Shown here: piece after piece, positions 8,606 to 32,036 of the stretch
How positions within the stretch are numbered: the first letter of the stretch is position 1
How the letters are laid out: each line of letters opens with the position of its first letter
Assembly (NCBI GenBank): GCA_016709875.1
Contig: JADJLZ010000009.1
Coordinates: forward strand, 218,824-282,823
DNA length: 64,000 nucleotides
Direction: 5' to 3'
Source: Planctomycetota bacterium
GTDB taxonomy: Bacteria; Planctomycetota; UBA1135; GCA-002686595
Translations under genes and position numbers: made by a program
The notes under the pieces: generated by a model
The model's input: only the letters and a program-made list of their open reading frames with translations
Told to the model about the DNA's origin: nothing
The model's database searches: none

Positions 8606-10642
8606 CTACTCGACCAACTTCATCTCCACATTCAACGCCCACGCGCCGTCGATCTGGAAATACTCGAGCTCGAGCTTGTGCTTGCCCGCGGTGAGCTCGA
8701 CCTGCGCCTCGTCGCGCGCCGGCGCGTGCAGGTCCCAGTGCTCGATCACCGTCTTGCCGTCCAGCCGCAGGCGCACGCCGTCGTCCGAGACCACCGCCAG
8801 CGCGAACTTTCCGCCCGCGTCGAGCTCGAACTCCGCCACAGCGCTCATCCCGAAGTGCGAATCGCCCACCGCCTTGCGCACCTGCGCATCGCCGCCCCAG
8901 GGGTCGACCCAGTTCGGACAGGTCTTCGTGATCGCCGGTTGCGTTCCCAGCGCGCGCCACTCGCGCTCCTTCTCGCGCGGATCCGGCCCGTCCCTCCACG
9001 ACCACCAGCTCCCGATCCACCTCACGTCCTTCAACAACCCGCCCGGCAGCCTCGGCTTGGGCCGCGGCTCGCCACTGCGGAAATCCCACGGTCCCCACTC
9101 GCCCATCACGATCGTGTTCAAGCCCTGCGTCTCGCCGCGATCCTTGGCGAAGACCACCAGCTCGCCCTTCACCTCGGGGCACTTCCAGGCGCGCGCCTTG
9201 CGCACCCACTCGGGCTCCTTGCCGTCCCAGCTGCTGAGCGTGCCGTCGCGCACCTCGCCGCTGGCGGTCTTGCCGTCGCGGCCGCGCATCCAGCTCGTCG
9301 CGTCGCCGCGCTCGACCTTCAGGCGCTCCATGCGCATGTCGCCGCCGCTGTCGTAGCTGTTGCCGCCGATGCGCAGCCCGGTCGTCTTGTTGACCACCAG
9401 ATCCTTGCCATTGCGCGCGAACGCGTTCCCGTAGACCCACGTGTCGCGCGAGCTCGTGTCGCGGTTCTGGCCGTAGACGCCCTCAACCAGCTGCTTGTCC
9501 TCGTCCCACCACAGCTCGACGCCGATCTCGTTGGCCTCGATCTGGTTCTCGACGATCGCGTTCTCCTGGCCGTGCTCGATGCTGACGGCACCGCCGAGCG
9601 TGCGCTCGATGTTGTTCCCGAGCACGACCATGCGCCCGGAGTACCCGCCCCAGATCCCGTGCTGGTGGCTGCCGTTGAGCGCGTTCGAGAGCACCCAGTT
9701 GTTCTTCGAGAAGGTGGCCTCGATCGCGTTCGCAACCGCGTACGAGAAGTCGTTGCGGTACCAGATGTTGTCGTCGCAGCCGCCGGCGTCGCGCTCGCCG
9801 CGCTTGAAGGCGTTGCCCTCGTCGACCGTGTCCAGGCCCGCGAACAAGAACACACCGTCCCCGCCGTGCGTGGCGCTGTTCCACGCGAACAAATTCTCGC
9901 TGCACCTCTCGAACATCAGGATCCCGGCCGAGTCCTGGCCGCGCCAGTAGACCCCGTCGCTGAAGCCGCGCACGCAGTAGTCGAACAGGCAGTGGCTCAC
10001 CACGAACTTCGAGGTGCGGTACAGCCCCAGGCCCCAGCCCGAGAGGAACGAGAAGTCGCAGTCCCAGACCTCCCCGCCCGTGCAGCGCGTCAACAGGATC
10101 CCGTTCTGGCCGCGCCGCCCGCGGCAGCCGTGGAGCGAGACGTTCCGGCAGTTCGAGAGGCTCGCCGCCGCGCCGTAGTCGCGCAGCCACTCGCCCTTGT
10201 CGTTGTGGTGCGGGTAGAGCCAGTCGCTGCCGTCCTCGTAGGCGACGTTCGACAGCAGGTGCTTGCCGTACCAGCCGTCGAAGCTGACGCCGTCGAGCGT
10301 GATCCCGTCGCAGTCCTGCGCGACCACGCAACCGCGGTAGCCGCCGATCGTCCCGCCCTTGAGCGTCACGTCGTGGCAGCCCACGAGCACGATCCCGTAG
10401 CCCTCGCAGCGGTCGAGGTCCGTGCCCGCAGGCACGCCGCGCAGCTCCACGCCGGTGAGATCGAGCGTGACGCCCTTCACCGCTTCGATGCGCAGCACGC
10501 CGCGCAGGCCGTCCTCGCCCTGAGGGGGCAGCAGGTACTTCCCGGGAGCGACTTTCGCGCTCTGCTGCACTTCGAGCGTCTGCCCGGCCACGGGTTTCAC
10601 GTCCGCCGTGCACACAACCAGCGCCAAGACTGCGATCAGCAT
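8606..10642 (-). CDS. Secreted parallel beta-helix (pectin-lyase-fold) protein with C-terminal PA14-like domain
   Basis: ATG 10640-10642 with an AGGAG RBS. MLIAVLALVVCTADVKPVAG signal peptide. Many beta-helix repeat turns (NGIL..., NAIVENQIEAN...). C-terminal ...GKHKLELEYFQIDGAWALNVEMKL is typical of PA14. Confidence 0.65.
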   Translation of the reverse strand: MLIAVLALVVCTADVKPVAGQTLEVQQSAKVAPGKYLLPPQGEDGLRGVLRIEAVKGVTLDLTGVELRGVPAGTDLDRCEGYGIVLVGCHDVTLKGGTIGGYRGCVVAQDCDGITLDGVSFDGWYGKHLLSNVAYEDGSDWLYPHHNDKGEWLRDYGAAASLSNCRNVSLHGCRGRRGQNGILLTRCTGGEVWDCDFSFLSGWGLGLYRTSKFVVSHCLFDYCVRGFSDGVYWRGQDSAGILMFERCSENLFAWNSATHGGDGVFLFAGLDTVDEGNAFKRGERDAGGCDDNIWYRNDFSYAVANAIEATFSKNNWVLSNALNGSHQHGIWGGYSGRMVVLGNNIERTLGGAVSIEHGQENAIVENQIEANEIGVELWWDEDKQLVEGVYGQNRDTSSRDTWVYGNAFARNGKDLVVNKTTGLRIGGNSYDSGGDMRMERLKVERGDATSWMRGRDGKTASGEVRDGTLSSWDGKEPEWVRKARAWKCPEVKGELVVFAKDRGETQGLNTIVMGEWGPWDFRSGEPRPKPRLPGGLLKDVRWIGSWWSWRDGPDPREKEREWRALGTQPAITKTCPNWVDPWGGDAQVRKAVGDSHFGMSAVAEFELDAGGKFALAVVSDDGVRLRLDGKTVIEHWDLHAPARDEAQVELTAGKHKLELEYFQIDGAWALNVEMKLVE

Positions 10643-10711
10643 CCTGAATTCTCCTTCGTTCGCTCCGAGCGTACCGAACGCGCCCGGCATCCCCTATCCT
10701 GTTCCCCCCGC

Positions 10712-12067
10712 ATGCCGCTCCCCACCTCCACGCTGCGCACCGGCGCGATCGCCTCCTCCGGAATCCAGCTCCAGCCCGAGCTCCCCGTCTGCCAGACCGA
10801 CCTGCCGCTCGACTGGTACCAGTCGGAGTTCAAACCCTACGCCGAGGAGTACCTCGCGCTGCCCGACCGCAAGCCGGGGACGATCCTGCCCTGGCTCGAC
10901 GGCTACGCGCTGCCTGCGCTCGATCACTTCGGGCCCGCGCTGCTGCTGCTGGCGCACTTCTACATGGGCGGCGAGATCGTGAAGCTCGTCGAGCGCTACG
11001 GCGGCAAGGTGGCCGATTCCTACGCGCTCGCGCTGCAGGCCTCGCGCAACCCGGAGAAGTCGATCATCGTCGAATCCGCCGTGCACTTCATGGCCGAGAC
11101 GATCGCCACGCTCGCCAGCCCCGAGCAGCAGGTCTACATCACCAACCCCAAGGCTGGGTGCACCATGGAGATGCTCGCCAAGGAGCACATGGTCGCGCCG
11201 GTCGTCGACCAGTTGCTCGAGCGCTACGGCGACGATCTCGCGGTGGTCGCGTACATGAACACCTCCGGGCGCATCAAGGCCATCGCCGGCCGCACCGGCG
11301 GCGCCGTGTGCACCTCGTCCAACGCGCACCACGTGCTCGCGCGCGTGCTCTCCGAGCGCAAGCGCGTGCTCTTCGTGCCCGACGAGCACCTGGGCCGCAA
11401 CAGCGCGCTCAAGCTCGGCATCCCGCTGGCGCAGATCCGCGCGCTGCCCAGCCCCGAGCGCTGGCGCTCGAGCTTCTCGCTGCGCGAGATCCCGGGCGGC
11501 CCGGCGTCGCTCGACGACGCGCGCGTGCTGCTCTGGGGCTCGTACTGCGGCGTGCACACGATCTTCAAGCCCGCGCACGTCGAGTACTGGCGCGCGCGCG
11601 GCTACCGCGTGCTCGTGCACCCCGAGTCGCCGCACGAGGTCGTCGCGCTCTCCGACGGCTCGGGCTCGACCGACTACCTGTGGAAGGCGATCGCGGACGC
11701 GCCCTCGGGCTCGCGCCTCTCGATCGGTACCGAGGGCCACTTCGTGCGCAACGCGCGCGAGCAGGCCGCGCTGCGCGGCGTCGAGGTCGTGCACCTGGCG
11801 GACATCCCCGATCCCACGCTCTCCTCGCGCGGTTGCGGCTGCGCGACGATGTCGCGCAACGACCCGCCGCACCTCGCCGGCATGCTGGATCTGCTGCGAC
11901 AGGGCAAGGCGCCCTCGATCAACCGCGTCCTCGCCGGCGACGTCGTCGACGAGCTGAGCGGCGCCCGCGAGCGACTGGGCGACGCGGATCGCGCGACCCT
12001 CGTCGTCGACGCGCGGGGGGCGCTCGAGCGCATGATCGAGATCACCGAGGCCGCCGCGCGCGCCTGA
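10712..12067 (+). CDS. nadA: Quinolinate synthase
   Basis: Motifs HFMAETIA, CTSSNAHHV, RGCGCATM. The 5' part of track ORF 8678..12067 is antisense to the upstream gene; ATG 10712 is chosen. About 80-aa N-terminal extension relative to the usual NadA. Confidence 0.8.
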   Translation: MPLPTSTLRTGAIASSGIQLQPELPVCQTDLPLDWYQSEFKPYAEEYLALPDRKPGTILPWLDGYALPALDHFGPALLLLAHFYMGGEIVKLVERYGGKVADSYALALQASRNPEKSIIVESAVHFMAETIATLASPEQQVYITNPKAGCTMEMLAKEHMVAPVVDQLLERYGDDLAVVAYMNTSGRIKAIAGRTGGAVCTSSNAHHVLARVLSERKRVLFVPDEHLGRNSALKLGIPLAQIRALPSPERWRSSFSLREIPGGPASLDDARVLLWGSYCGVHTIFKPAHVEYWRARGYRVLVHPESPHEVVALSDGSGSTDYLWKAIADAPSGSRLSIGTEGHFVRNAREQAALRGVEVVHLADIPDPTLSSRGCGCATMSRNDPPHLAGMLDLLRQGKAPSINRVLAGDVVDELSGARERLGDADRATLVVDARGALERMIEITEAAARA

Positions 12068-12172
12068 GACGCGAGGGGGCGCAGCGGATTTCGCTGCGGA
12101 ACTGCAACTTGGCGGCTCCGCCCCTATACTGCAACCAGCCTGGCAGCTTGATCCCCATCCAGGGAGACAGGG

Positions 12173-14155
12173 TTGGATTCCATCCTCGTTCGGGCATCCC
12201 TCGCATTCGCCGCCGCCTGCCTGCTGACACTCCCCGCGAGTGCGCACGGAGGCGCCTACCTGCCGACCGGCTGGGGCATGCCGATTCCGAGCACCCCCGG
12301 CTCGCCTTCGAGCACGGGCGGGGTCTCCTTCCCCGGTCCCATGACGGGTGGCACACCGGGCCCCGGACCGACGACCGGCGGGGATCCGGCCTCGGGGCTG
12401 GTCTCCTGGCGCGATTGGTGGCACTTCAACCAGGACGCCTTCCTCGACCTGCGCCGCTCGATCCAGCGCGCGGCGGTCGAGACCGGCGGCGACGGCTTCG
12501 GCCCGCAGTTGCGCTCGCTGCTCAACGCGCGCCTGGACGAGGAGCAGGTGCGCGCCAAGCTCGCCCCCGCGCTGCTCAAGCTGCTCGCCGACGAGTCGAG
12601 CAACGAGATCGCGACCGCCGCGCTCGTCGCGCTCGCGCGCAGCGGTGATGCGCAGCCCGCGCAGGCCAAGGACTCGCTCGTGCCCGCGCTGCGCGCGCGC
12701 CTGACGGATTCTTCGCAGGAGGTCGCCGAGTCGGCGGCGCTCGCGCTGGGCATCCTGGGCGACGAATCCGGTCTCGACCTGCTCGCGAGCCTGTTGCAGG
12801 ACGACGAGGAAGCGCGCAAGCTGCTCGGAGGCGGCCGCTCGGTGAGCACGCGCACGCGCTCCTTCGCCGCGTACTCGCTGGGCCTCTTGGCCGAGCAGGC
12901 GCACAACAACCGCACGCGCCAGCGCGCCGCGCGCGGCCTGTGCGCAGCGCTCGGGGCGCGCCGCGAGCCGCCGCAGGACGTCCAGGTCGCGTGCGTGATC
13001 GCCCTCTCGCTCGACCGGCTCGACCCCGAACGCGGGCAGACGCAGAGCGCCGAGTGGGTCTCGCGCCAGTCGCTCGTGCACGCGCTGCTCGAGTCGCTCG
13101 ACGCGCCGCACCGCCGCGCGACCGTGCGCGCCCACATCGTCACCGCGCTCGCGCGCCTGGTGCTCGACGCCGGCGGAACGCTGCGCACCGAAGTCGAGCG
13201 CGCCCTGCTCGACGAGCTGCGTCGCGGCCGCGCGCTCGAGAACGAGGTCTCGCAGAGCTGCGTGCAGGCGCTGGGTCTGCTGGCCGACGCCGACGCGGAT
13301 CCGCTCGATGTCGAGATGCGCGCGGTGCTGCTGCGCGCGCTCGACACCACCGATCAGGCGACGCGCTTCTTTGCGCTGATCGCCCTGGGCGAGGCCGGCG
13401 GGCACCCGGGCAGCGGCGAGCGCTCGGACGAGGGCCGCGCGCAGTGCCGCAACGCGCTCCTGAACGAGCTCGTGCGCGGCCGCAGCCGCATGCGGCCCTG
13501 GGCGGCGATCGCGCTCGGCGTGCAGGAATTCCGCGTGCGCGGCGCGGGCGGCGAGCCCTCCAGCCAGGTGCGCAAGGAGCTGCGCGACTGGCTGCGCGCC
13601 GAGGGCAGCCCCGAAGAGGTCGGCGCAGGTTCGATCGCGCTCGGACTCGCGCACGACGTGGAAGCGGCGCAGCTCCTGCGCGCCAAGCTGGGCAAGTCGA
13701 GCCCGACCGACTCGCAGGGCTACGTCGCACTCGCGCTGGGCATGACGGGCACCACCGACGCGCTGCCCGAGCTGCGCGCGATCACGCTCGCCGCGCGCTA
13801 CCGGCCCTGGGTGCTCGAACCCGCCGCAACGGCGCTCGCGCTGCTCGGCGACCGCGACATCGAGTCGCAGCTCCTGGACGCGCTGCGCTCGACGCAGAGC
13901 CTGAGCACGCAGTCGGCGCTCGCGCGCGCGATCGGACAGATCGGCGACGCGCGCGTCTTCGATCCGATGCTCGCGCTGGCGCAAGACCGCGGCTTGCCGG
14001 GGAGCACGCGCGCCTTCGCGACCATCGCGCTCGGCATGCTGGGCGAGCGCGGCGACCTGCCCTGGTATGTCCCCCTCGCGCGCGACCGGAACTACATCGC
14101 GGTCACGCCCACGCTGATGGGCGGCGACGGCCAAGGCGTGCTGGAGATCTTCTGA
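12173..14155 (+). CDS. Secreted HEAT/PBS-lyase-repeat protein, paralog 1
   Basis: TTG start at 12173 with an AGGGAGA RBS. Signal peptide ...AACLLTLPASAHG. P/G/T-rich linker. Motif WRDWWHFNQDAFLDLRR, then about 10 HEAT-like repeats (A..ALG.LGD..). C-terminus GVLEIF. Confidence 0.6.
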   Translation: MDSILVRASLAFAAACLLTLPASAHGGAYLPTGWGMPIPSTPGSPSSTGGVSFPGPMTGGTPGPGPTTGGDPASGLVSWRDWWHFNQDAFLDLRRSIQRAAVETGGDGFGPQLRSLLNARLDEEQVRAKLAPALLKLLADESSNEIATAALVALARSGDAQPAQAKDSLVPALRARLTDSSQEVAESAALALGILGDESGLDLLASLLQDDEEARKLLGGGRSVSTRTRSFAAYSLGLLAEQAHNNRTRQRAARGLCAALGARREPPQDVQVACVIALSLDRLDPERGQTQSAEWVSRQSLVHALLESLDAPHRRATVRAHIVTALARLVLDAGGTLRTEVERALLDELRRGRALENEVSQSCVQALGLLADADADPLDVEMRAVLLRALDTTDQATRFFALIALGEAGGHPGSGERSDEGRAQCRNALLNELVRGRSRMRPWAAIALGVQEFRVRGAGGEPSSQVRKELRDWLRAEGSPEEVGAGSIALGLAHDVEAAQLLRAKLGKSSPTDSQGYVALALGMTGTTDALPELRAITLAARYRPWVLEPAATALALLGDRDIESQLLDALRSTQSLSTQSALARAIGQIGDARVFDPMLALAQDRGLPGSTRAFATIALGMLGERGDLPWYVPLARDRNYIAVTPTLMGGDGQGVLEIF

Positions 14156-14184
14156 GCACGCATCCCCCCGCTGCGACTCCTCTC

Positions 14185-16242
14185 ATGAAGTTCCCGCTCC
14201 CCACCGCCTTGCTCGCGCTCGCGCTGCTCGTCGCGCCCACGCACGCCCGCGTCCACGGCAACAACATCCCGCCGCCGCCCGGAGGACCGACCTCCCCGGG
14301 TTCGAGCCCAGCCGGCCCTTCCGGCCCGAGCACGCCCGCGCCGTCGGGTCCCTCGACGCCGACGCCGGGAGCTGCGACGCCGCGGCCGACCGGCCCGTCC
14401 TCGACGCCCGCGGGCGGCGCGCCGCGCACGCCGGGCGGTTCGGGTTCGACCGGCCCGCAGAGCGGCGCAGACGCGCGCTTCCTCGATCCGACCTGGGACC
14501 TGTGGTGGCACTTCCACAAGGACGAGTTCTTCGACCTCAAGCGCCGCGTCTACGAGTCGGTGACGACACCCGACGGCCTGGGCCGCGGCGAATCGCTGCT
14601 GCCCGGCGCGAACCTGGGCTACCGGCCGAGCTCCGAGCAGCTCGCGCGCGACGTCGCGCCGCTGTTCGCCACGCTGCTCGCAAAGGAGCACAACAACGAA
14701 CTCGTGACGAGCACGCTGCTCGCGGCGGGCCGGCTGGGAGAGATCCCCGACGCGGGTGAAGCGGCGCGACTGGCCCCGCTGTGCGCGCGCCTCTTGCGCG
14801 ACCCCAACCAGGAGATCGCCGAGATCGCGGCGCTCTCGCTGGGCCTGCTCGGCTCCGAGTCGAACCTGGCGCTGCTCGAGGGGCTGCTGCGCGACGATGC
14901 CGCAGGGCGCGAAGCCGCAGGCACGCGCGAAGTGCCGATGCGCATGCGCTCCTTCGCGGCCTTCGGCCTGGGCGTGCTCGGGCAGCACCTCGAGGGCAAT
15001 CGACCGCGGCAGATGATCGCGCGCGCACTGACCGACCAGCTCGCGCGCCGCGAGGGCTGCACGACCGACACGCGCGCGGCCTGCCTGATCGCGCTCGGCC
15101 TCGTGCCGCTCGAGCTCGAGCGCGAGGAGAGCGCGAGCGCACCGTGGCTCTCACGCCAGACCGAGCTGCGCTTCCTGCTCGAATTCGTGAACGACGGTGA
15201 GCAGACGCCGGTGCTGCGCGCGCACGCGGCGAATGCGCTGGCCGAACTCGCTTGCGGCAGCACGCCCGAGGCGAAGATCGCCGTGCTCGACGCGCTGATC
15301 GCACTCTCGCGGCGCGATTCGACGCAGGCGACGCTGCGCGAGAGCTGCCTGATGGGCCTGGGCCGGCTCGCCGACGACGACCAGGACCCCGAAGACAAGC
15401 GCGCGCGCGTCGAACTGCGCCGCACCTTCGCTTCGGGCTCGACCTCGGAGCGTGCCTTCGCGTTGATGTCGCTCTCGGAGTGCGCCGCGCGAGCGGGAAC
15501 CGGCCTCGAGCCCGGCTCCGCGCGGAGCGAGTGCCGCGACGTCCTCGCCGAGGAGCTCGCGCACGGCCGCTCGCGCACGCGACCCTGGGCGGCGCTCGCG
15601 CTCGGCGTGCTCGAGTTCCGGCTGCAGCACCAGGGCGCGCAACCGCTTCCCGCCGTGCGCGATGCGCTGCGCCGCGCGCTCGCGGGAGCCGCCGGCCCCG
15701 ACGAGGCCGGCGCGTGCGCGGTCGCGATCGGGCTGACGGGCGACGCGGACGGTGCGCGCGTGCTCGCCGAGCGCCTCGCGGGCGCGGGCGACGACGTGCT
15801 GCGCGGCTATTTCGCGCTGGGCATCGGCCTCTCGGGCAACCACTCGCTGACCGAGGGCGTGCGCACGGTGACCGCGAGCGCGCGCTACCGGCCGTTCCTG
15901 ATGCAGCAGTGCGTCGTCGCGCTCGCGCTCTTGGGCGACAAGAACCTCGCGCCCGGCCTCGCGCAGGATCTGCGCAGCGCGACCGGCCAGGCGAGCCAGA
16001 GCTGGCTGGCGCAGGCGCTCGGCATGGTCGGCGACTCGCGCACGGTGCCGGTGCTGGTCGCGATGGTGCGCGAGCAGGCGCTGACCGACTCCGCCCGCGG
16101 CAACCTCGCCAGCGCGCTCGGAATCGTGTGCGACAAGGACCTGCTGCCCTGGTACCGCGCCTTCTCCGCGCACGTCAACTGGCGCGCCGCCACCTCGACC
16201 CTGATCGCCGGCAACGGCACCGGGATCCTCGAGATCCTCTAG
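14185..16242 (+). CDS. Secreted HEAT/PBS-lyase-repeat protein, paralog 2
   Basis: MKFPLPTALLALALLVAPTHA signal peptide. P/G/S/T-rich low-complexity linker. WDLWWHFHKDEFFDLKRR motif. HEAT-like repeats. C-terminus GILEIL. Same architecture as 12173-14155. Confidence 0.6.
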   Translation: MKFPLPTALLALALLVAPTHARVHGNNIPPPPGGPTSPGSSPAGPSGPSTPAPSGPSTPTPGAATPRPTGPSSTPAGGAPRTPGGSGSTGPQSGADARFLDPTWDLWWHFHKDEFFDLKRRVYESVTTPDGLGRGESLLPGANLGYRPSSEQLARDVAPLFATLLAKEHNNELVTSTLLAAGRLGEIPDAGEAARLAPLCARLLRDPNQEIAEIAALSLGLLGSESNLALLEGLLRDDAAGREAAGTREVPMRMRSFAAFGLGVLGQHLEGNRPRQMIARALTDQLARREGCTTDTRAACLIALGLVPLELEREESASAPWLSRQTELRFLLEFVNDGEQTPVLRAHAANALAELACGSTPEAKIAVLDALIALSRRDSTQATLRESCLMGLGRLADDDQDPEDKRARVELRRTFASGSTSERAFALMSLSECAARAGTGLEPGSARSECRDVLAEELAHGRSRTRPWAALALGVLEFRLQHQGAQPLPAVRDALRRALAGAAGPDEAGACAVAIGLTGDADGARVLAERLAGAGDDVLRGYFALGIGLSGNHSLTEGVRTVTASARYRPFLMQQCVVALALLGDKNLAPGLAQDLRSATGQASQSWLAQALGMVGDSRTVPVLVAMVREQALTDSARGNLASALGIVCDKDLLPWYRAFSAHVNWRAATSTLIAGNGTGILEIL

Positions 16243-16778
16243 CCGCGCTCGGTCTCCCAGATCTGCGCGCCGAAGTGGTCCCAGGGCAGGCGGCCCTCGT
16301 CGCACTGCTCGTCGGTGGAGAACTGGACGTCGACGAAATAGAGGATCGCGCTGCTCGAGGCCGTGCGCAGGTTGCGGCAGCCGTGCGCCACGCCGGGCGG
16401 GATGCGCACGAGGCGCGAGGTCGAGTCGCCCAGGACAAAGCGCATGATCTGGCCTTCCGTCGGCGAGCCCGTGCGCACGTCGGCGAGCACGAGCAGGAGC
16501 TTGTCCGAGGGCGGCACGAACCAGACATCGGTCTGGCGGCGGTGCATGTGGAAGGCCTTGATCGCCAGCGGCTCGAGGATCGAGTAGTTCACCTGCCGCA
16601 CCACGAAGCCGGGGAGCTGCTTGTGCAGGCCCTGGTCGAGCCGGCCGAGCTCGGTCATCGCGCCGCCGTCGTCGTGGAAGCGCTTGAGCTCGACGATCTC
16701 GACACCCTCGATGCGTCTCTTCGGGGTGTAGTCCTGCTTGAAATAGCGCCTCTCGGCTTCGGGGGAGAACTGGGTCAT
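16239..16778 (-). CDS. RmlC-like cupin (dTDP-4-dehydrorhamnose 3,5-epimerase family) protein
   Basis: 179 aa. ...GFVVRQVNYSILEPLAIKAFHMHRRQTDVWFVPPSDKLLLVLADVR...RLVRIPPGVAHG resembles dTDP-sugar epimerase/isomerase cupins. Stop overlaps the kdpE start (ATGA). Confidence 0.5.
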   Translation of the reverse strand: MTQFSPEAERRYFKQDYTPKRRIEGVEIVELKRFHDDGGAMTELGRLDQGLHKQLPGFVVRQVNYSILEPLAIKAFHMHRRQTDVWFVPPSDKLLLVLADVRTGSPTEGQIMRFVLGDSTSRLVRIPPGVAHGCRNLRTASSSAILYFVDVQFSTDEQCDEGRLPWDHFGAQIWETERG

Positions 16779-17512
16779 GAATTGGGCTCCTGAATATCCG
16801 GCTCGGTCGGGGGGGTGCCGGTGAGCTCCAGACGGTAGCCGACGCCGGCCTCGTTGTGGAAGAACCGGCCGCGCGCGGGATCGGGTTCGAGCTTGCGCCG
16901 CAGGTGCGTCATGTAGACGCGCAGGTACTGCGTCTCCTCGGCCGACTGCGGTCCCCAGACCTCGGTCAGCAGCTGGCGGTGAGTCACGACGCGCCCGGCG
17001 TGGCGCGCGAGCACCGCGAGCAGCCGGAACTCGATCGGCGTGAGGCGCACCTCCTGGCCGTCGAGCTCCACGCGCCGGAGTGCGAGGTCGATCTTCAGCG
17101 GCCCCTGCGTCAGCACGCTCTCCTCGGGTCCTTCGGGTCGCGCCGCGCGCCGCAAGGCCGCGCGCATGCGCGCCATGAGCTCGGCGAATCCGAACGGTTT
17201 CGTCAGGTAGTCGTCTGCGCCCGCATCGAGCGCTTCGACCTTGTTGCGTTCCTCGCCGCGTGCCGAGAGGACCAGCACGGGCACTCGGCTCCAGGTCCGC
17301 AGCCGCTGCACGACCTCGGTGCCGTCCATGTCCGGCAGACCCAGGTCGAGCAGCACGACGTCGGGCACGTGCTGCGCCGCTTCGCGCAGGCCGAGCGCGC
17401 CGGTTTCAGCCTCGATCACCGCGAAGCCGTGTGCCTTGAGGCTGGTGCGCAGGAAGCGGCGCAACTGCGGCTCGTCCTCGATCACGAGCACCAGCGGTTC
17501 GGTCGACTTCAC
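16775..17512 (-). CDS. kdpE: KDP operon response regulator (OmpR family)
   Basis: GTG start overlaps the kdpD stop (GTGA). Receiver (LVLVIEDEP...VLLDLGLPDMDG) plus winged-helix output (...LTPIEFRLLAVLARHAGRVVTHRQLL...). Sits next to kdpD. Confidence 0.85.
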   Translation of the reverse strand: MKSTEPLVLVIEDEPQLRRFLRTSLKAHGFAVIEAETGALGLREAAQHVPDVVLLDLGLPDMDGTEVVQRLRTWSRVPVLVLSARGEERNKVEALDAGADDYLTKPFGFAELMARMRAALRRAARPEGPEESVLTQGPLKIDLALRRVELDGQEVRLTPIEFRLLAVLARHAGRVVTHRQLLTEVWGPQSAEETQYLRVYMTHLRRKLEPDPARGRFFHNEAGVGYRLELTGTPPTEPDIQEPNS

Positions 17513-20208
17513 GGCGCATCCTCTTGCCGTCTCGCCGGGGGCGGCGGCACTTTCGTGACGGGCAGGCGCATACGGAACGTCGCGCCCCCGCCGAGCCGGT
17601 TCTCGGCCACCACGCTGCCGCCGTGCGCCCGCAGGATCGCGCGGCAGACCGAGAGCCCCAGGCCCGAGCCGCCGGCACGCTTGCCGTCCGGCAGGCGCAC
17701 GAACTTCTCGAAGATGCGCTGCTCCTCGCCGGGCGGGATGCCGGGCCCGCGGTCGGAGACCTCGATCAGGACTTCGCCCGGGCCGCCGCTCGAGCGCAGT
17801 TCGATCGGCGAACCGCTCGGGCTGTACTTGAGCGCGTTCTCGACCAAGTGCACCAGCGCCTGCTCGATCAGCACGGGATCCACGTGCGCCTGCAGGATCT
17901 CGCGCGGCAGTTCGAGCTCGAGCTTGCGGCCTGCGAGGCGTTCGTGAAGCCGGTCGAGCGCGCCGTGGACGAGTTCCTCGACCGGGCACCACTCGCGCCG
18001 CGGCTGCAGCGCGCCCGAGTCCAGGCGCGTCAGATCGAGCAGGTTCGAGACGAGTTCGGAGAGGCGCTGGCTCTCCGACTGGATCGTCTCCAGGAGCTCG
18101 TTCTGCTCGATCCGGCCGATTCCCGCGCCACCCGCGAGCAGCACGCCGGCCGAGCCAGCGATGGAAGCGAGCGGCGTGCGCAGGTCGTGCGAGACGCTCG
18201 AGAGCAGGTCGGTGCGCAGGCGCTCGGTCTCGACGGCGCGGCGCGCCTCGTCGGCCTCGGCACGCAGGCGCACCCGCTCGAGCGCGAGCGCAGCCTGCGC
18301 GACGAAGGTGTCGAGCATCTGGTGATCCGAGGGCCGCAACTCGCGTCCGAGCGCGCCGAGCATCACGCCCATGACTGCGATGGTGCCGCGCGGCACGCTC
18401 ATCGGCAGGTAGAGAGCCCTGGCTGCCGGCAGCGTGTCCGTGCCGAAACCGGCGCGCTTGTCGTTTTCGAACACCCAGCGCGCGACGGCAACCTCGCGCT
18501 CGTCCTCGGCCTGCCAGCCCTCGGTGCTGGCGGTCGCGCGCAGGCCACCGCCGGGCTCGGGCAGGAACAGACAGGCCTCGGCCAGCAGCAGGTCGCGGAC
18601 GCGCTCGACGCTCGACTGCGCGATCGCGGACGGATCGTCCTCGACCGCGAAGGCGCGCGTCATGGCATACAGCGCCGCCGTGCGCCGTTCGCGCTCCTGC
18701 GAGGCCGCGGCCTGTTCGCGGATGACCACGGTGCGCTGACTGGCGATGAAGCCCACGACCAGCATCACGGCGAAGGTCAGGACATGGTGCAGGTCGCTGA
18801 CGGCGAAGGTGTAGTACGGCGGGATGAAGAAGAAGTCGAAGCTCGCGACGCTGGCCAGCGTGGCAACGAAAGCCGGCCCGCGACCGGCGATGCTGGCCGA
18901 GATCAGCAGCGCCAGCAGGTTGATCATCGCGTGGTCTGCGATGTTGAGCGATTCGCGCGTGGCCATGCCGACCAGCACGGCCAGCGCCACGGGCACGAGC
19001 GCCAGCGGGTACTCGCGCAGCGGCGTCGCCAGCGGCGTGCGCGGCGCGAGCTTCTGCGCCAGGTCGTCCTGGATCCCGGGCGTGACGAGCACCTCGAGAT
19101 CCTCGGCGCGACGCACGAGTTCGTCCGCGAGCGACGCAAAGAGCGCCGCGAGCGGGCCGCGCCGGCGCGATCTGCCCACCACGACACGCGTCACGCCGCG
19201 ATCGCGAGCCACATGCAGGATCTGCTCCGCCGCTCGCTCGCTGCCCACCACCAGGCTCTCGCCGCCGAGCTGGCGCGCGAGCTCGAGCAGTTCCGAGACC
19301 TCGCCGCGCGCTTCGTCCGAAAGTCGCTCGATGCGCTCGGACTCGGGCACGAGCGCGATCCACGGCGCGCGCAGCTCGACGGCCAGGCGCCGGCCGGCGC
19401 GCAGCACATCCAGCGCCCGCGCGCCGGGCTGAAGCACGATCAGGATGCGCTCGCGCGCTCCGGCGCCGGGCCGACGGCCCTGCGCGCGGCGGTACTCGGT
19501 GGCCTGCTGGTCCACGCGCTCGGCGGTCTTGCGCAGGGCCAGCTCGCGCAGCGCGATCAGGTTCTCCTTGCGGAAAAAGCTCTGCAGTGCGCGCTCGGCC
19601 TGGGCCGGCACGTAGACCTTGCCCTCGGTCAGGCGCGCGAGCAGCTCGTCGGGCGGCAGGTCGACGAGCTCGATCGCGTCGGCGCGCTCGAGAATCGAGT
19701 CGGGCACGGTCTCCCGCACACGCACGCCGGTCAGGCGCTCGACCACGTCGTTGAGGCTCTCGACGTGCTGCACGTTGAGCGTGGTGTAGACCTCGATACC
19801 CGCGTCGAGCAGCTCCTCCACGTCCTGCCAGCGCTTGGCGTGCCGCAACCCGGGCGCATTGGTGTGCGCCAGCTCGTCGAGCAGCAGCAGGCCGGGCTTG
19901 CGCGCCAGCGCCGCGTCGAGATCGAACTCCTCGAGCACGATGCCACGATGCTCGACGCGCTTCGGCGGCAGCTGCACCAGCCCCTGCGCCAGGTGCTCGG
20001 TTTCCGCGCGGCCGTGCGTCAGCACCACGCCCACGAGCACGTCCGTCCCGCGCGCTGCACGCGTGCGCGCTTCCTCGAGCATCGCGTAGGTTTTCCCCAC
20101 GCCGGGCGCCATGCCGAAGAAGAGCTTGAGCCGGCCGCGCGTCGCCTGGGCCTTCTCGCGCGCAATGCGCGCGAGCAGTTCCTCGGGGCTCGGACGCGTG
20201 TCGCTCAT
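17509..20208 (-). CDS. kdpD: Sensor histidine kinase KdpD
   Basis: 899 aa. N-terminal KdpD domain (LKLFFGMAPGVGKTYAML), USP-like region, four TM helices, HisKA (SHDLRTPL) and HATPase domains. Confidence 0.9.
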   Translation of the reverse strand: MSDTRPSPEELLARIAREKAQATRGRLKLFFGMAPGVGKTYAMLEEARTRAARGTDVLVGVVLTHGRAETEHLAQGLVQLPPKRVEHRGIVLEEFDLDAALARKPGLLLLDELAHTNAPGLRHAKRWQDVEELLDAGIEVYTTLNVQHVESLNDVVERLTGVRVRETVPDSILERADAIELVDLPPDELLARLTEGKVYVPAQAERALQSFFRKENLIALRELALRKTAERVDQQATEYRRAQGRRPGAGARERILIVLQPGARALDVLRAGRRLAVELRAPWIALVPESERIERLSDEARGEVSELLELARQLGGESLVVGSERAAEQILHVARDRGVTRVVVGRSRRRGPLAALFASLADELVRRAEDLEVLVTPGIQDDLAQKLAPRTPLATPLREYPLALVPVALAVLVGMATRESLNIADHAMINLLALLISASIAGRGPAFVATLASVASFDFFFIPPYYTFAVSDLHHVLTFAVMLVVGFIASQRTVVIREQAAASQERERRTAALYAMTRAFAVEDDPSAIAQSSVERVRDLLLAEACLFLPEPGGGLRATASTEGWQAEDEREVAVARWVFENDKRAGFGTDTLPAARALYLPMSVPRGTIAVMGVMLGALGRELRPSDHQMLDTFVAQAALALERVRLRAEADEARRAVETERLRTDLLSSVSHDLRTPLASIAGSAGVLLAGGAGIGRIEQNELLETIQSESQRLSELVSNLLDLTRLDSGALQPRREWCPVEELVHGALDRLHERLAGRKLELELPREILQAHVDPVLIEQALVHLVENALKYSPSGSPIELRSSGGPGEVLIEVSDRGPGIPPGEEQRIFEKFVRLPDGKRAGGSGLGLSVCRAILRAHGGSVVAENRLGGGATFRMRLPVTKVPPPPARRQEDAP

Positions 20209-20768
20209 GCGGACGGCGCGCAGCCTAGCAGGTGTTGCGATCGCGCTCCAGCCCGGCCAGCGCGTGCCGCGCGCGGATCAGCGCCGACGATGGCGCGAGC
20301 CGATCCGTGCACGGCCGTGCTGTGACAGCCAGAGCACGCTCGCGTAGATGGCGATCGGGATGCCGGAGATGAGAAAGTCGATCCGCATGTGTCCTCCAGG
20401 CCCAGCTGCACGATGCGGACGCGTTTACGAGCTGCCAGGACTCGGCCCGCGAGCATCCATTCTCCGCTAGAGCGCAGCGCACACGCAGTGCGTGAGCTCC
20501 GAGCGCAGGGCCCACTCGATCCGGTGCTTCGGCGCGTGTTCGGCTCGCGCCGGTTGCCGCGCGCCCACAAGGCCGCGAGCAAGACTTTTCCTGCGCATTC
20601 ACGCACAACCCGCTCGTTTTAGCAGCTCATTAACGCGCGCAGACCCTAGCCTCTGCGGCATGTTCCTCGAGCCCTTCTGCCTGGCGAGTGCGCTCGCCTT
20701 CTTCACCTTCCTCGGCTGGATCGTCGGCCGCATCGCGGACCACCCGCCGGAAGGACAGCGGTGATCCC

Positions 20769-20861
20769 ATGACCATCGTGCACTGGATCGCCGCCCTCGT
20801 GACCTTGGCCCTCTTCGTCTACCTCTTCGTCGCGCTCTTCAAACCCGAGAGCTTCGACTGA
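20769..20861 (+). CDS. kdpF: K+-transporting ATPase subunit F
   Basis: 30-aa hydrophobic peptide MTIVHWIAALVTLALFVYLFVALFKPESFD, 12 nt upstream of kdpA. Confidence 0.6.
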   Translation: MTIVHWIAALVTLALFVYLFVALFKPESFD

Positions 20862-20873
20862 GCGGAATCCGCC

Positions 20874-22580
20874 ATGAGCTGGCTGCAAATCCTCTTCTAT
20901 CTGGTCGTACTCGTCGTGCTGGCCAAGCCGCTGGGCGGATTCATGGCGCGCATCTACGAGGGCGAGATGCCGGCCTGCGCGCGCTGGCTCGCCCCGCTCG
21001 AGCGCGCGATCTACCGCTTCTGCGGCCTGCGCGCCGACCAGGAACAGGGCTGGAAGTCCTATGCCGGCGCGATGCTGGCGTTCAACCTGCTTGGGCTGCT
21101 CGCCGTCTACGCGCTGCAGCGTCTGCAAGGCTTCCTGCCGCTCAACCCGGCGCACATGGCCGCGGTCTCGCCTGACTCGTCGTTCAACACCGCGGTCAGC
21201 TTCGCGACGAACACCAATTGGCAGGGCTACGGCGGCGAGACCACGATGAGCCACCTGACGCAGATGCTCGGTCTCTCCGTGCAGAACTTCGTCTCGGCCG
21301 CTTCGGGCATGGCGGTGCTGGTAGCCCTGGCGCGCGGATTCACGCGCAAGTCGAGCTCGACGATCGGCAGCTTCTGGGTCGACCTCGTGCGCTCGACGGT
21401 CTACATCCTGCTGCCCCTGTCGATCGTGCTGGCGCTCGTGCTCGTCTCGCAGGGCGTCGTGCAGAACTTCGCGGCACCGGTCGTGGCGCACACTCTGCAG
21501 GGCGCCGAGCAGTCGATCTCGATGGGGCCGGCGGCCTCGCAGATCGCGATCAAGCAGCTGGGCACGAACGGCGGCGGTTTCTTCAACGTGAACTCCGCGC
21601 ACCCGCTCGAGAACCCGACGGCCTTCTCGAACCTGCTCGAGATGCTCTCGATCCTGCTGATCTCCGCCGGCTTGTGCTTCACCTTCGGCAGGCTCGTCAA
21701 GGACAAGCGCCAGGGCTTGGCGCTGCTCGCCAGCATGCTGATCGTGCTCGCACCCTGCATCGTGATGGTCCAGCTCTTCGAGCAGGCGGGAACGCATGCG
21801 CAGCAGCTGGCGGGTGTCGAGCTCTCGGCCGCTGCAGACCAGCCCGGCGGCAACATGGAGGGCAAGGAGCTGCGCTTGGGTATCGCCAACTCGGCCATCT
21901 GGTCGGTAGCGACCACGGCCGCCTCGAACGGCTCGGTCAACGCGATGCACGACTCGTTCACGCCGCTGGGCGGCCTCTGGCCAATGTGGCTGATCCAACT
22001 CGGCGAGGTGATCTTCGGCGGCGTCGGATCGGGCCTGTATGGCCTGCTGTTGTTCGCGATCGTGGCCGTCTTCGTCGCGGGGTTGATGGTCGGACGCACG
22101 CCCGAGTACCTGGGCAAGAAGATCGGCGCGTTCGAGATGCAGTGGGCCTCGTTCGCGATCCTCGCGCCGTGCGTGGCGGTGCTGTTCGGCACGGCGGTCG
22201 CGGTGCTGCTCGATGCGGGCCGCGCCGGCGTCGCCAACCCGGGCGCGCACGGGTTCAGCGAGATCCTCTATGCCTTCAGCTCGGCCGGAAACAACAACGG
22301 CAGCGCCTTCGCCGGTCTTTCGGCCAACACGCCCTTCTTCAACATCGCGCTGGGCTTCGCGATGCTCGTCGGGCGCTATCTGGTCATGCTGCCCGTGCTG
22401 GCGATCGCCGGCGCGCTGGCCGCGAAGAAACTCGTGCCCGCCGGACCGGGCACGCTGCCGACGCACGGCCTGCTGTTCGTCCTGCTGCTCGTCTCGACCG
22501 TGCTGCTCGTCGGGGCCCTGACCTTCATCCCCGCGCTGGCCCTGGGTCCGATCGTCGAACAGCTGCAGATGCTGCACTGA
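20874..22580 (+). CDS. kdpA: Potassium-transporting ATPase subunit A
   Basis: [31 protein letters not shown]... Full-length KdpA (568 aa). Confidence 0.9.
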
Positions 22581-29978: not shown

Positions 29979-32036
29979 ATGCTCGCTCGTTCCGTGCTCG
30001 CCGGCTCGCTGGCGATGACGCTCTTTCCCGCGTTCGCTCCCGCACGTCCGCTCCCCTTCGGTGGCCACCACGCCCCGCCTCCCAACGGCGGCACTTGGGG
30101 CGGCGGCGGAGACACGGTGCCCCCGCCCAAGCCCTCGACGCCGACTCCCAAAGCCGCGCCGAGCGGTCCCAAGAGCGGCGAAGCTCCTGCACCGAGCGGC
30201 CCCAAGGGCGCTCCCGTCGCCGGCCACGCGCCGAGCGCTCCGCAAGCGCCGCTCGGCGCGACCACGCCGCAGCCTGCGGGAGGCGCAGGCGCCCTCACCG
30301 GCGGCGACGACGCGGCATTCGAGGCCAGCTGGAACGTGTGGTGGTTCTTCCACCAGGACGAGTTCCTGCACTACGCCAGCGGCCCGACGACCTCCGACCT
30401 GCGCCTGCTCGACCAGCCCGCGACGCGCCAGGCCTCCGACGAGGCGGTCGTGCGGTCGATCGCCGCGGTGATCGAGCGCGAGCGCTCGACCGAGATCCTG
30501 ACCGGCGCGCTGCTCGGCGTCGCGCGCGTGCACCAGCCCGATGCACTGCTCGCGATCCGCGCGGGCCTCGCCTCGAGCACCATGCGCGTGCGCGAGGTGA
30601 GCCTCGTCGCGCTCGGTGCGAGCGGCGACGAGTCGGTGCTCGGCGACCTCGAGTCGCTGCTGCGCGACGACGCGCAGGGCCGCAAGCTGTCCGGCGAACG
30701 CGGCCAGGGGACCTCGCAGCGCATGCGCGCCTACGCCGCCTACGGCCTGGGGCTCGCGGCGGAGAACTCGAGCAGCGGGCGCGTGCGCCAGATGGCGGCG
30801 CGCGCACTCTCCGACGTGCTCAGCCGCGACCGCTCGGCCTCGGCTGACCTGCAGAGCGCCTGCGCGCTCGCGCTGGGTCTCGTGCCGCTGCCCGCGATGC
30901 CCGGCCTGGCGCGCGAGAAGGACGACGCGACGCCCTGGGTCTCGCGCGAGCGCATGGCGGACTTCCTCGCCGAACTGCTGGCCGACAAGGATCGCCCCGA
31001 GGTCTTGCGCGCGCAGCTCCCGTGCGTGCTCGCGCGCCTGGTCGCCGACGCGGACAACCCCACGCGCACCGCGGCTGCGCAGGCGATCGTTACGCAGCTG
31101 CAGCGCGGCAGCGCCGTCTCTGGCGGCCTGCGCGAGGGCTGCATCCAGGCGCTGGGCGAGCTCGCGCGCCCCGTGCGCGGCGCGGTCGACCTGAAGGTGC
31201 AGAACGCGCTCGTGCAAGCCGCCGAGCGCGGGCCCGAGGCCGAGCGCTGCTTTGCCTGGATGGCGCTCGCGTCCGTCGCCGCGCGCGAGGGCGACGGCGA
31301 GTCGCCCGCAACCGAGCGCGGCGTGCTGCGCATGCGCCTCGTGCAAGCGCTCGCGAGCGTGCGCTCGCACGAACGCTCCTGGATCGCGCTCGCGCTGGGC
31401 GTGCTCGAGTCTCGCCGCGCCCGCGCGGGCGACCTCGAACCCTCGCTCGAGGTGCGCGCAGCCCTGCGCACGGCTTTCGGCCGCGCGAGCGGCCCCGAGG
31501 AAGAGGCCGCGATCGCGATGGGCATCGGTCTCTGCGGCGACCTCGAGGGCACGACGCTGGTCGCCGAGCGGCTGCAGCGCAACTCGCAGTCGCACCTGGT
31601 CGGCTATGAAGTGCTCGCACTCGGCCTCGCGCACGACGCGAGCCAGCGCGGGCGGCTCGAGAAGCTGCTCGAGACGAGCAACGACCCGGTCGTGGTCGAA
31701 CACGCCGCCGAGGCGCTGGGCCTGATCGGCGACGAAAACCTGACGCGCCTGCTCCTCGCCGGCGCGCAGTCGAACGCCAGCCTCGAAGCGCGCGAGAGCC
31801 ACGTGCTCGCGCTCGCCGACGTGGGCGACCGCAGCGCGCTCGCGCTGCTGGCGAAGAAGCTCGCCGACGAGAACCAGCCGCCGTGCATGCGCGCGGCGCT
31901 CTCGGGCGCGCTGGGCGGGATCTGCGACCACGACGGAAGGAAGTGGTACGCGGGCCTGCGCACGCTGGCGAACTGGCGCGTGGCGAGCCTGACGCTGGTC
32001 ACCGGCGACGGCGCGGGCGTGCTCGAGATGGGCTGA
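29979..32036 (+). CDS. Secreted HEAT/PBS-lyase-repeat protein, paralog 3
   Basis: GGAGGA RBS 4 nt before the ATG. Signal peptide MLARSVLAGSLAMTLFPAFAPA. P/G-rich linker. WNVWWFFHQDEFLHY motif. HEAT-like repeats. C-terminus GVLEMG. Same architecture as 12173-16242. Confidence 0.6.
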   Translation: MLARSVLAGSLAMTLFPAFAPARPLPFGGHHAPPPNGGTWGGGGDTVPPPKPSTPTPKAAPSGPKSGEAPAPSGPKGAPVAGHAPSAPQAPLGATTPQPAGGAGALTGGDDAAFEASWNVWWFFHQDEFLHYASGPTTSDLRLLDQPATRQASDEAVVRSIAAVIERERSTEILTGALLGVARVHQPDALLAIRAGLASSTMRVREVSLVALGASGDESVLGDLESLLRDDAQGRKLSGERGQGTSQRMRAYAAYGLGLAAENSSSGRVRQMAARALSDVLSRDRSASADLQSACALALGLVPLPAMPGLAREKDDATPWVSRERMADFLAELLADKDRPEVLRAQLPCVLARLVADADNPTRTAAAQAIVTQLQRGSAVSGGLREGCIQALGELARPVRGAVDLKVQNALVQAAERGPEAERCFAWMALASVAAREGDGESPATERGVLRMRLVQALASVRSHERSWIALALGVLESRRARAGDLEPSLEVRAALRTAFGRASGPEEEAAIAMGIGLCGDLEGTTLVAERLQRNSQSHLVGYEVLALGLAHDASQRGRLEKLLETSNDPVVVEHAAEALGLIGDENLTRLLLAGAQSNASLEARESHVLALADVGDRSALALLAKKLADENQPPCMRAALSGALGGICDHDGRKWYAGLRTLANWRVASLTLVTGDGAGVLEMG

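Follow-up and report, generated by a model that had tools for sequence, protein, structure and literature searches.

Tandem paralogs of a predicted exported HEAT-solenoid family in uncultured Planctomycetota: a conserved N-terminal peptide, a disordered tether and a Trp-rich helix

Results

The window, that is, the whole stretch of 64,000 nucleotides which was analysed, codes for three similar HEAT-repeat proteins, here called A, B and C, and for two further proteins with HEAT repeats. The features are listed with the basis of the assignment in parentheses.

12173..14155, + strand: paralog A, predicted exported HEAT-solenoid protein, 660 aa, TTG start (open reading frame and translation, GC3, identical NCBI protein, AlphaFold2 model)
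12173..12244, + strand: predicted Sec signal peptide of A, aa 1-24, ending ASA before His25 (read by eye; conservation in relatives)
12245..12406, + strand: predicted mature N-terminal motif HGGAY of A, then Gly/Pro/Ser/Thr-rich disordered tether, aa 25-78 (motif logo; pLDDT; family spacing)
12407..12451, + strand: Trp-rich helix WRDWWHFNQDAFLDL of A, aa 79-93, first helix of the solenoid (conservation; helix 79-91 in the model)
12539..14041, + strand: HEAT/PBS-type alpha-solenoid of A, 27 helices, aa 123-623 (AlphaFold2 model)
14057..14152, + strand: conserved tail of A, LPW..NY.A.T.TL...G.GVLEIF, to the last residue (column conservation; pLDDT 85-91)
14185..16242, + strand: paralog B, 685 aa, 29 nt 3′ of A on the same strand (open reading frame; 100% identity to P0001)
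14494..14538, + strand: Trp-rich helix WDLWWHFHKDEFFDL of B, aa 104-118 (sequence, motif scan)
16144..16239, + strand: conserved tail of B, ending GTGILEIL (sequence, alignment)
29979..32036, + strand: paralog C, divergent third copy, 685 aa (open reading frame; at most 38% identity to any retrieved relative)
30330..30374, + strand: Trp-rich helix WNVWWFFHQDEFLHY of C, aa 118-132 (sequence, motif scan)
31938..32033, + strand: tail of C, ending GAGVLEMG, which deviates from the family consensus ...LDIL (sequence, column conservation)
35523-36323: HEAT protein of 266 aa
36382-38046: HEAT+vWA protein

The three large open reading frames (660, 685 and 685 aa) lie on the + strand at the coordinates given in the original prediction. 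Gene A has a GC3 of 0.93 and a GC2 of 0.54, the coding signature expected at 70% genome GC, and its TTG start is also the start in the NCBI annotation of a MAG protein identical to A (P0220). The frames of B and C are supported by the GC-frame plot. A and B are probably co-transcribed; no terminator-like site on the + strand was found between them or elsewhere in a scan of positions 11800-16600, and the same scan gave no promoter-like site. A close ortholog of C was not found, and the scan of metagenome contigs gave a single partial match (54% across 145 aa).

Aligned end to end, the three proteins share 35-39% identity, and blastp yields E values of 5e-125 (A-B), 1e-79 (A-C) and 2e-95 (B-C). 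Thus A, B and C are true full-length collinear paralogs with a common architecture, as had been predicted, and their similarity exceeds that of generic HEAT repeats: against the two other HEAT proteins of the window the E values are above 0.04, with only short matches at the Trp motif. The aromatic motifs had been quoted exactly, as had the C-terminal ends GVLEIF (A), GILEIL (B) and GVLEMG (C). We are highly confident of the architecture and the family assignment. The 266-aa and HEAT+vWA proteins, which had been counted into the same expansion, turned out to be separate families. When the profile of the large family is compared with that of the 266-aa family, the alignment (probability 86%) is confined to 78 generic HEAT columns.

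The family is large. At E of 1e-30 or below it comprises 3,940 cluster representatives, GTDB species genomes contain at least 452 loci, and the matches listed all stem from MAGs of uncultured Planctomycetota or from metagenome contigs. Related loci were retrieved with a sub-alignment of six sequences, a choice that favours the P0051 subfamily among them. Same-strand tandem arrays of two to four copies are the usual arrangement and arose repeatedly. The idea of a lineage-specific expansion is not supported: the family is nothing peculiar to this genome, thousands of members occur across uncultured Planctomycetota, and tandem copies are the rule. A and B belong to the family by full-length collinear homology and share both its WxxWW helix and its C-terminal tail G-x-L-[DE]-I-L; C is likewise collinear over its full length but deviates in tail (GVLEMG) and motif (WNVWWFFH). 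The family appears to be confined to lineages without cultured representatives.

All three proteins score above the gathering threshold of Pfam HEAT_2 (PF13646, 27.7 bits), with 78.3 bits for A, 40.5 for B and 42.2 for C. In Pfam, NCBIfam and PADLOC we found generic HEAT matches only. Neither on exported HEAT proteins of Planctomycetes or Planctomycetota nor on the WxxWW motif did the literature hold anything relevant, and no curated family or paper assigning a function was found, which agrees with the original prediction of a family without assigned function. The family is so far unnamed, and its only annotation is "HEAT repeat protein".

At the N-terminus, 211 of 272 N-complete relatives (78%) have HGG at about residue 25, with small residues before it at -3 and -1; the -1 residue is A, G or S in 196 of these 211. 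The predicted signal peptides are therefore very probably cleavable, as judged by eye and from the conserved AxA site. The motif logo extends to AxA|HGGxYRGPGDxVPP at the predicted mature N-terminus, a feature which the original prediction did not contain, and His25 is 91% conserved. In the window copies the motif is degenerate: A has ASA|HGGAY without GPGD, B has HGNNIPPPP and C has GGHHAPPP. The letters "AAAC" within its signal peptide might suggest that A is a lipoprotein, but we rejected this because the orthologs lack the Cys. The Pro/Gly/Ser/Thr-rich linker had been described as low-complexity. It is indeed present, and residues 18-75 of A have a pLDDT below 50 in the AlphaFold2 model, but a constraint on its length had been overlooked: the spacing from HGG to the first Trp has an interquartile range of 72-80 aa in the family, versus 54 aa in A. 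The family tether thus appears to be disordered yet length-constrained.

The Trp-rich helix follows. W79, W82 and W83 are invariant across an alignment of 42 relatives picked independently of the motif, N86 of A is 90% conserved, and W..WW stands in register in 293 of 304 retrieved relatives. In the model of A the helix (79-91) has a pLDDT of about 90. The aromatic motif is thus invariant as predicted, but it is not exclusive to A, B and C, since a six-frame translation of the window contains W..WW exactly five times, the extra two belonging to the small HEAT and the HEAT+vWA protein. Rather than a signature that defines the family, it seems to be a terminal cap which HEAT arrays of this lineage can reuse.

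The AlphaFold2 model of A (pLDDT 85.4, pTM 0.84) appears to be an open alpha-solenoid of paired antiparallel helices. A PBS-type HEAT solenoid had been foreseen, but with about 10 repeats where the model, with its 27 helices, has about 13 hairpins. Solenoid length, both termini and the type-1/type-2 order are strongly conserved. No His column within A 123-623 reaches 85% conservation among 274 members, and the solenoid has no conserved residue of potential catalytic or metal-binding function, neither His-Glu pairs nor conserved His or Cys. The tail columns P630, W631, N640, Y641, A643, T647, L648, G655 and L657 are 87-95% conserved; G655 and L657, at 94-95%, bear out the shared G-x-L-E-I/M C-terminus. 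From their position and pLDDT we infer that the Trp helix and the tail may cap the solenoid.

In the window the neighbours of A, B and C are nadA, an rmlC-like gene, kdpDE, kdpABC, a GT2 gene and xseA. Close relatives show the order NosD-like, nadA, A, (x), B, rmlC-like, kdpE, kdpD; these surroundings are unrelated housekeeping synteny. A-then-B order is kept in the relatives L083 and L084, and the orthologs of A and B share 59-77% identity in stable synteny. Context look-ups in six relatives showed that neighbourhoods vary between lineages, and of the context conserved elsewhere nothing is present in the window. We clustered the open reading frames of 84 loci all-against-all for shared context. 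A downstream block on the opposite strand, which contains a membrane protein and a 457-aa protein, is common to 52-57 loci, including the distant L001. Because no homolog of it occurs in the 64-kb window, we treat it as synteny and not as a functional link. By eye the sequence pattern of the membrane protein is spermidine-synthase-like, with no Pfam match on record.

Discussion

We tentatively suggest that A, B and C are non-enzymatic, exported and probably hetero-oligomeric binding scaffolds with a tethered docking peptide. As the solenoid lacks conserved residues of potential catalytic or metal-binding function, the role is most likely non-enzymatic. How such proteins might work is more doubtful still, but the following steps are conceivable. 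Cleavage of the signal peptide upon export would leave the conserved peptide HGGxYRGPGDxVPP at the new N-terminus, and the Gly/Pro-rich disordered tether would join it to the solenoid. The Trp-rich helix WxxWWxFNK would cap the solenoid, which has a fixed length of about 13 hairpins, at its N-terminal end, and the conserved tail would close it. In the periplasm or cell envelope the solenoid could then act as a scaffold that binds proteins or ligands. Tandem paralogs might self-associate and act as hetero-oligomers, and the peptide on its tether might be a docking element for a neighbouring subunit or another envelope component. It is the gene organisation that suggests self-association and hetero-oligomers, because the genes nearly always lie as tandem paralogs in one orientation, and such paralogs have repeatedly arisen and been kept; charge complementarity between tandem partners was not found. 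Any docking by the peptide cannot be essential in its consensus form, since the motif is degenerate in A, B and C.

A bolder version, which we consider rather unlikely, would make the family a structural element of the envelope that is specific to an uncultured Planctomycetota lineage. An elastomer-like Gly/Pro tether would keep hetero-oligomeric solenoids at a fixed distance, the N-terminal peptide would dock onto a neighbouring subunit or a membrane or wall component, and the whole would form a lattice or a skeleton spanning the periplasm. A tether of about 75-80 residues would measure roughly 20-25 nm if extended and is thus comparable to the width of a periplasm.

It is similarly unlikely that the proteins are independent diversifying binders, for example surface adhesins, or immunity or decoy proteins that act in the periplasm against phage proteins or exported toxins. 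Their copy number and sequence would then turn over under conflict-driven selection, and no stable complex would form. No toxin, secretion-system or phage gene adjoins any copy examined, and toxin domains were not found in six related loci. The 59-77% identity of the A and B orthologs amid housekeeping genes and the conserved solenoid length, termini and type-1/type-2 order would be unusual for proteins in an arms race, and with about 680 aa they are far above the typical size of immunity proteins. In PADLOC-DB only A gave a match, a sub-threshold and generic one to HEAT-ARM_XIII (E 0.004, 12.5 bits); B and C gave none.

Slightly less probable again is a metal-handling envelope protein in which the N-terminal His binds Cu(II) or Ni(II) and the solenoid delivers or buffers the metal. 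Copper binding by an N-terminal His is established for histidine-brace and ATCUN proteins. The well conserved His25 directly follows the predicted signal-peptidase site (His1 in HGGxY), and B-type sequences often have AxA, two residues and HGH, which puts a His at position 3 of the mature protein; xxHGH/N resembles the ATCUN motif. However, the predicted cleavage register varies in B-type sequences (e.g. P0009, P0011-P0013), the His is missing altogether in some members (P0028, P0040, L001_3) and there is no second conserved His, Cys or Met to complete a site. Metal-resistance or metal-transport genes linked to A, B and C were not found; the neighbouring kdp operon serves K+ transport and is linked by synteny alone. 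As YRGPGDxVPP is as conserved as the His, the motif points to a peptide-recognition element.

That the proteins are enzymes or enzyme subunits of the PBS-lyase HEAT type, be it bilin lyases or NblB-like proteins (CpcE/F) or di-iron enzymes resembling deoxyhypusine hydroxylase, is highly improbable and largely refuted by the lack of conserved catalytic residues. The NCBIfam scores (bilin lyase models NF045915 and NF058505) are 10-30 times under the curated cut-offs: 26.2 bits against 300 for NblB and, with the small HEAT protein only, 17.9 against 600 for CpeY. The PDB match to deoxyhypusine hydroxylase (1.1e-9) covers only about 60 generic repeat residues, and designed alphaRep proteins score best, which is the pattern of any PBS-type HEAT array. 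The predicted signal peptides with their conserved AxA site are at odds with the cytoplasmic location of such enzymes, and the window has no phycobiliprotein genes. As to the trivial explanation, spurious long open reading frames at 70% GC or unrelated HEAT proteins alike through repetitiveness, the window does hold many such frames and HEAT repeats do cause low-level cross-matches, but the GC signatures, the gap between the collinear E values and those of the other HEAT proteins, hundreds of full-length homologs, the confident model of A and the conserved non-repeat elements at both ends already refute it and leave it next to no probability.

The Planctomycetota envelope is unusual and flexible, with an enlarged periplasm, and to our knowledge the proteins which organise it are largely unknown. 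The family described here has a sharply defined architecture, thousands of members at least and two to four copies per genome. If it is an envelope scaffold or tether, it would offer a concrete entry point to the envelope biology of uncultured planctomycetes and be a rare case of an exported HEAT solenoid that carries its docking peptide on a tether; model bacteria would have nothing equivalent to a lattice or periplasm-spanning skeleton of this kind. Should the proteins be no more than generic binders, a useful family definition remains, without surprise. The WxxWWxxN(K) helix, used at either end of HEAT arrays, may serve repeat-protein design as a natural capping module.

Comparison with known proteins

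Closest at hand are the 266-aa family and the HEAT+vWA protein. They share with A, B and C the lineage, a signal peptide, PBS-type HEAT repeats and a W-x-x-W-W-(x)-x-N/K helix at one end of the HEAT array. In them, however, this helix is C-terminal in the array, whereas it is N-terminal in our family, and they are without HGG motif, tether and LDIL tail. The known PBS-lyase-type HEAT proteins (PF13646/PF03130; CpcE/CpcF, NblB, E. coli YibA, alphaRep) are cytoplasmic, mostly of 200-300 aa, and lack the signal peptide, N-terminal motif, Gly/Pro tether, Trp cap helix and conserved tail of A, B and C.

TonB is an envelope protein in which a proline-rich, extended spacer of relevant length joins the anchoring end to the functional domain. 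The likeness to our family is by analogy only, as TonB keeps its N-terminal membrane anchor uncleaved, has a small alpha/beta domain at the C-terminus, is no solenoid and shows no homology; ExbB/ExbD-like partners linked to A, B and C were not found. The karyopherins importin-alpha and importin-beta are eukaryotic and cytoplasmic or nuclear, and their sequence kinship with A, B and C is limited to generic repeats. Here the likeness lies in a possible mode of action, the docking of a peptide, which is putative in our family, and not in family membership.

Results

Three full-length paralogs

The window (GC about 70%) comes from a metagenome-assembled 'Planctomycetes bacterium' and encodes three paralogous HEAT-repeat proteins, here called A, B and C:

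12173-14155, + strand, paralog A, 660 aa
14185-16242, + strand, paralog B, 685 aa
29979-32036, + strand, paralog C, 685 aa

B is 100% identical to the NCBI entry 'MAG: hypothetical protein IPJ19_15035'. A matches the database relative P0220 ('HEAT repeat domain-containing protein', on the same NCBI contig as the B match) with 99.8% identity in blastp, and the single mismatch lies at residue 1 because the TTG start of the window was translated as Leu. The codon-position GC pattern of A is that of real genes (GC3 0.93), and the frames of B and C are supported by the GC-frame plot. The gap between A and B measures 29 nt and contains no terminator-like site.

The three proteins can be aligned end to end with pairwise identities of 35-39% and blastp E-values of 5e-125 (A-B), 2e-95 (B-C) and 1e-79 (A-C), whereas the window's remaining two HEAT proteins match them with E>0.04 and solely at a local tryptophan motif. 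The original prediction of three paralogs sharing one architecture is therefore confirmed, far above the likeness of generic HEAT repeats. A close ortholog of C was found neither among the relatives retrieved nor in the metagenome scan.

Size and distribution of the family

When 1.84 billion cluster representatives were searched with a profile, 3,940 proteins passed E<=1e-30; the top 150, each scoring above 637 bits, are without exception full length. GTDB was scanned with one genome for each species and two peptide patterns only as seeds, and tblastn confirmed at least 452 loci. The best 80 of these are all from metagenome-assembled genomes (MAGs), nearly all labelled Planctomycetota; no cultured organism carrying the family is among the matches listed. 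One family gene, 75% identical to the relative P0051, sits on a 3.9-kb contig (L009, JBERSB010000313.1) binned as Luminiphilus sp. (Gammaproteobacteria). All remaining carriers are either Planctomycetota or unclassified, so that the contig was probably misbinned and does not reflect a transfer. Another MAG with the family bears the label CL500-15, the name of a clade that has been placed in the uncultured class OM190 (PMC5607371); we take this as a lead to the carrier lineage and not as a classification of the genome of the window.

The source names are limited to 'HEAT repeat (domain-containing) protein' or 'hypothetical protein', and our literature searches turned up neither the motif nor the family. 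Pfam matched no more than HEAT_2, HEAT, HEAT_EZ and HEAT_PBS; the one NCBIfam match of note, NblB, reached 26 bits where the cut-off is 300; PADLOC gave one generic HEAT-ARM match below threshold. In a sequence profile search of the PDB the designed alphaRep proteins came out on top, followed by short generic matches to DOHH, Vac8, importin-alpha and Rpn2.

Solenoid, tryptophan helix and tail

A was modelled with AlphaFold2 from 42 relatives; the model is confident (pLDDT 85.4, pTM 0.84) and confines disorder to residues 18-75 and 101-114. The motif WRDWWHFNQDAFL forms a helix at residues 79-91 with a pLDDT of about 90, 27 further helices make up about 13 hairpins between residues 123 and 623, and the final 30 residues are non-helical yet confident (pLDDT 85-91). 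The tryptophan motif is present in 293 of the 304 relatives retrieved, and in the unselected 42-sequence alignment W79, W82 and W83 are invariant. We scored column conservation, in A numbering, among 274 full-length relatives. Outside the repeats, conservation is highest at these tryptophans, at N86 (90%), at R229 and R613 (100% each) and in a tail L-P-W...N-Y-R-A-x-T-x-T-L...G-x-G-[IV]-L-[DEN]-I-L that runs up to the C-terminus. No conserved His or Cys column was found within the solenoid of these relatives. Solenoid plus tail are near-fixed in size (interquartile range 582-598 aa among family members).

The N-terminus and the tether

Of 272 N-complete relatives, 211 have an H-G-G motif at about residue 25, continuing as x-Y-R-G-P-G-D-x-V-P-P. 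Small residues occupy positions -3 and -1 ahead of it, as in a signal-peptidase I site. As it lies right behind this site, the motif, which is new relative to the original prediction, would be the mature N-terminus. It is occasionally doubled (P0043, P0047, P0055, P0056) and is degenerate in the copies of the window (A, ASA|HGGAY; B, HA|RVHGNNIPPPP; C, FGGHHAPPP).

The segment between HGG and the tryptophan helix had been described as a low-complexity linker. Its composition bears this out (28% Gly, 22% Pro), but the constraint on its length had been overlooked: the spacing from HGG to WxxWW has an interquartile range of 72-80 aa (n=211 diverse members) and falls between 75 and 85 in almost every tandem copy. 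The segment is disordered yet length-constrained, despite its low-complexity make-up. A is an outlier with 54 aa (12245-12406); the segment of B lies at about 14248-14493.

Five distant relatives (P0063, P0065, P0066, P0068, P0069) carry an additional N-terminal domain of ~150 aa (…PQFVDxDGRRCAVAELLH…NGLxLDEAARIQ…), then a GPGDxxPP element, a Pro-rich linker and a 'WWxWWEFNKLEFL' helix, and are without the LDIL tail.

Tandem arrays

At 39 of 83 loci two to four family genes lie on the same strand, tens of bases apart or apparently overlapping, and many of the single-copy loci are truncated contigs. In a neighbour-joining tree, the first and last genes of the arrays form separate orthogroups within one large clade (first type FNKDPFIRLR...TGILDIL, last type WEFWWEFGKDP...GILDLL), which points to an ancient duplication with the order kept. 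Elsewhere, in eight genomes or more, copies from one genome cluster with each other; these are independent later duplications or gene conversion. A, B and C fall into one group with all four copies of L083. This close relative shares its synteny with the window, as does the two-copy locus L084. Tandem paralogy looks obligate and has arisen repeatedly.

Two further families with a tryptophan helix

The six-frame translation of the window contains W..WW five times, namely in A, B, C and in two proteins that had been counted to the same expansion:

35523-36323, - strand, exported HEAT protein of 266 aa, W..WW at its C-terminus ('...EWQRWWNKNKRDNWDAEK')
36382-38046, - strand, HEAT + vWA protein with signal or anchor sequence, 'LGDDPQRWAEWWKNS' at about 37170

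This grouping did not hold. With the 266-aa protein, which belongs to a conserved family of its own (242 matches, in the same kind of Planctomycetota MAGs), the large family shared no more than 78 alignable columns of generic HEAT type in a profile-profile comparison, so that the two are distinct families with a common Trp-rich terminal helix. The near-invariant C-terminal motif of the 266-aa family is KLSKHDERDPxxWQxWWNKNKxxxWD; W..WW is kept in 112 of 120 homologs, and its distance from the C-terminal end is exactly 17 residues in 90 of these. The AlphaFold model (pLDDT 89.3) shows the motif as the final helix, residues 247-257, with a pLDDT of about 96. The HEAT + vWA protein likewise falls outside the expansion by blastp. 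Its 'RWAEWWKNS' lies exactly at the junction of HEAT array and vWA domain, which is a third context of the helix. Based on helix position and model confidence, we read the Trp-rich helix as a putative cap for an exposed end of the HEAT array, N-terminal in the large family and C-terminal in the 266-aa family.

The HEAT + vWA gene, pabB-like and pabC-like genes, the 266-aa HEAT gene and the gene of a predicted 379-aa lipoprotein (34331-35470) form a same-strand run.

Genomic surroundings

None of the assignments of the neighbouring genes points to a function:

8606-10690, - strand, NosD/beta-helix + PA14 protein
~10700-12067, + strand, nadA-like, from sequence and a PF02445 gene at the matching position in L083 and L084
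16239-16778, - strand, rmlC-like cupin
16775-17500, - strand, kdpE
17509-20208, - strand, kdpD
20874-25220, + strand, kdpABC
25230-25949, + strand, MetA-like outer-membrane protein (Phenol_MetA_deg), directly after kdpC
25977-27764, + strand, FG-GAP protein
27792-29156, + strand, deoxyhypusine-synthase-like protein (Pfam DS, 1.9e-32)
29153-29875, + strand, DUF547
32046-~32960, - strand, GT2-like glycosyltransferase, by eye from the translation
32983-34299, - strand, xseA

The kdp system is complete, with kdpD/kdpE divergent from kdpABC, and has the same layout in L083 and L084. The deoxyhypusine-synthase-like protein ends in a basic repeat tail, KPRKPRKPNKPNKPNKPRKPRKPAPRAKAKR; its gene is followed by DUF547 (4-nt overlap) and then by paralog C. 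A 305-aa ORF at 31999-32916 (- strand) was rejected: it is Arg-rich, and its GC1 of 0.96 and GC3 of 0.51 mark it as an artefact of the wrong frame. The real gene there lies in the frame of ORF 32046-33437, has a GT2-type look (…FAVVANWNGGEENLECLRSL…VDNGSSDGS…) and is convergent with C.

By ORF clustering of 84 loci, an opposite-strand downstream block is common to 52-57 of them (17481-22036, - strand, in locus L001, and equivalent positions elsewhere); no homolog of it was found in the 64-kb window. Its genes encode two small helical exported proteins, an exported protein of 457 aa and a 510-aa membrane protein whose sequence pattern looks spermidine-synthase-like by eye (no recorded Pfam match). 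The block persists even at a locus whose family protein shares only about 38% identity with the query.

Discussion

We are highly confident of the architecture and the family assignment of A, B and C. The proteins combine an exported-type N-terminus with a solenoid of fixed length which is conserved at both ends and has no conserved catalytic or metal-binding residue. We tentatively suggest that they could be non-enzymatic binding scaffolds in the periplasm or envelope. Self-association would yield hetero-oligomers from the duplicated copies, and the conserved mature N-terminal peptide would be a docking element held on the tether. Fully extended, a tether of about 76 residues would reach roughly 20-25 nm, which is of the order of the periplasm width. 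That the proteins build a lineage-specific tethered envelope skeleton appears doubtful to us.

The dynamic copy number and the orphan paralogs would also suit independently acting, diversifying binding or immunity-like proteins, but toxin partners are lacking, length and termini are strongly conserved and the synteny is stable, so that we regard this as unlikely. Metal binding by the N-terminus, suggested by a conserved His that is the first residue after cleavage or close to it, is quite improbable given that the cleavage register varies, some members are without the His and a second ligand is lacking. An enzyme like the PBS lyases or DOHH, to which the repeats bear a generic likeness, fails on curated cut-offs, location and residues and is very improbable, and an artefact is next to inconceivable.

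In summary, the binding scaffolds proposed here belong to a cleanly defined, hitherto unannotated protein family. The finding is real, yet it is not a new kind of system; it is the architecture that is unusual among HEAT proteins.
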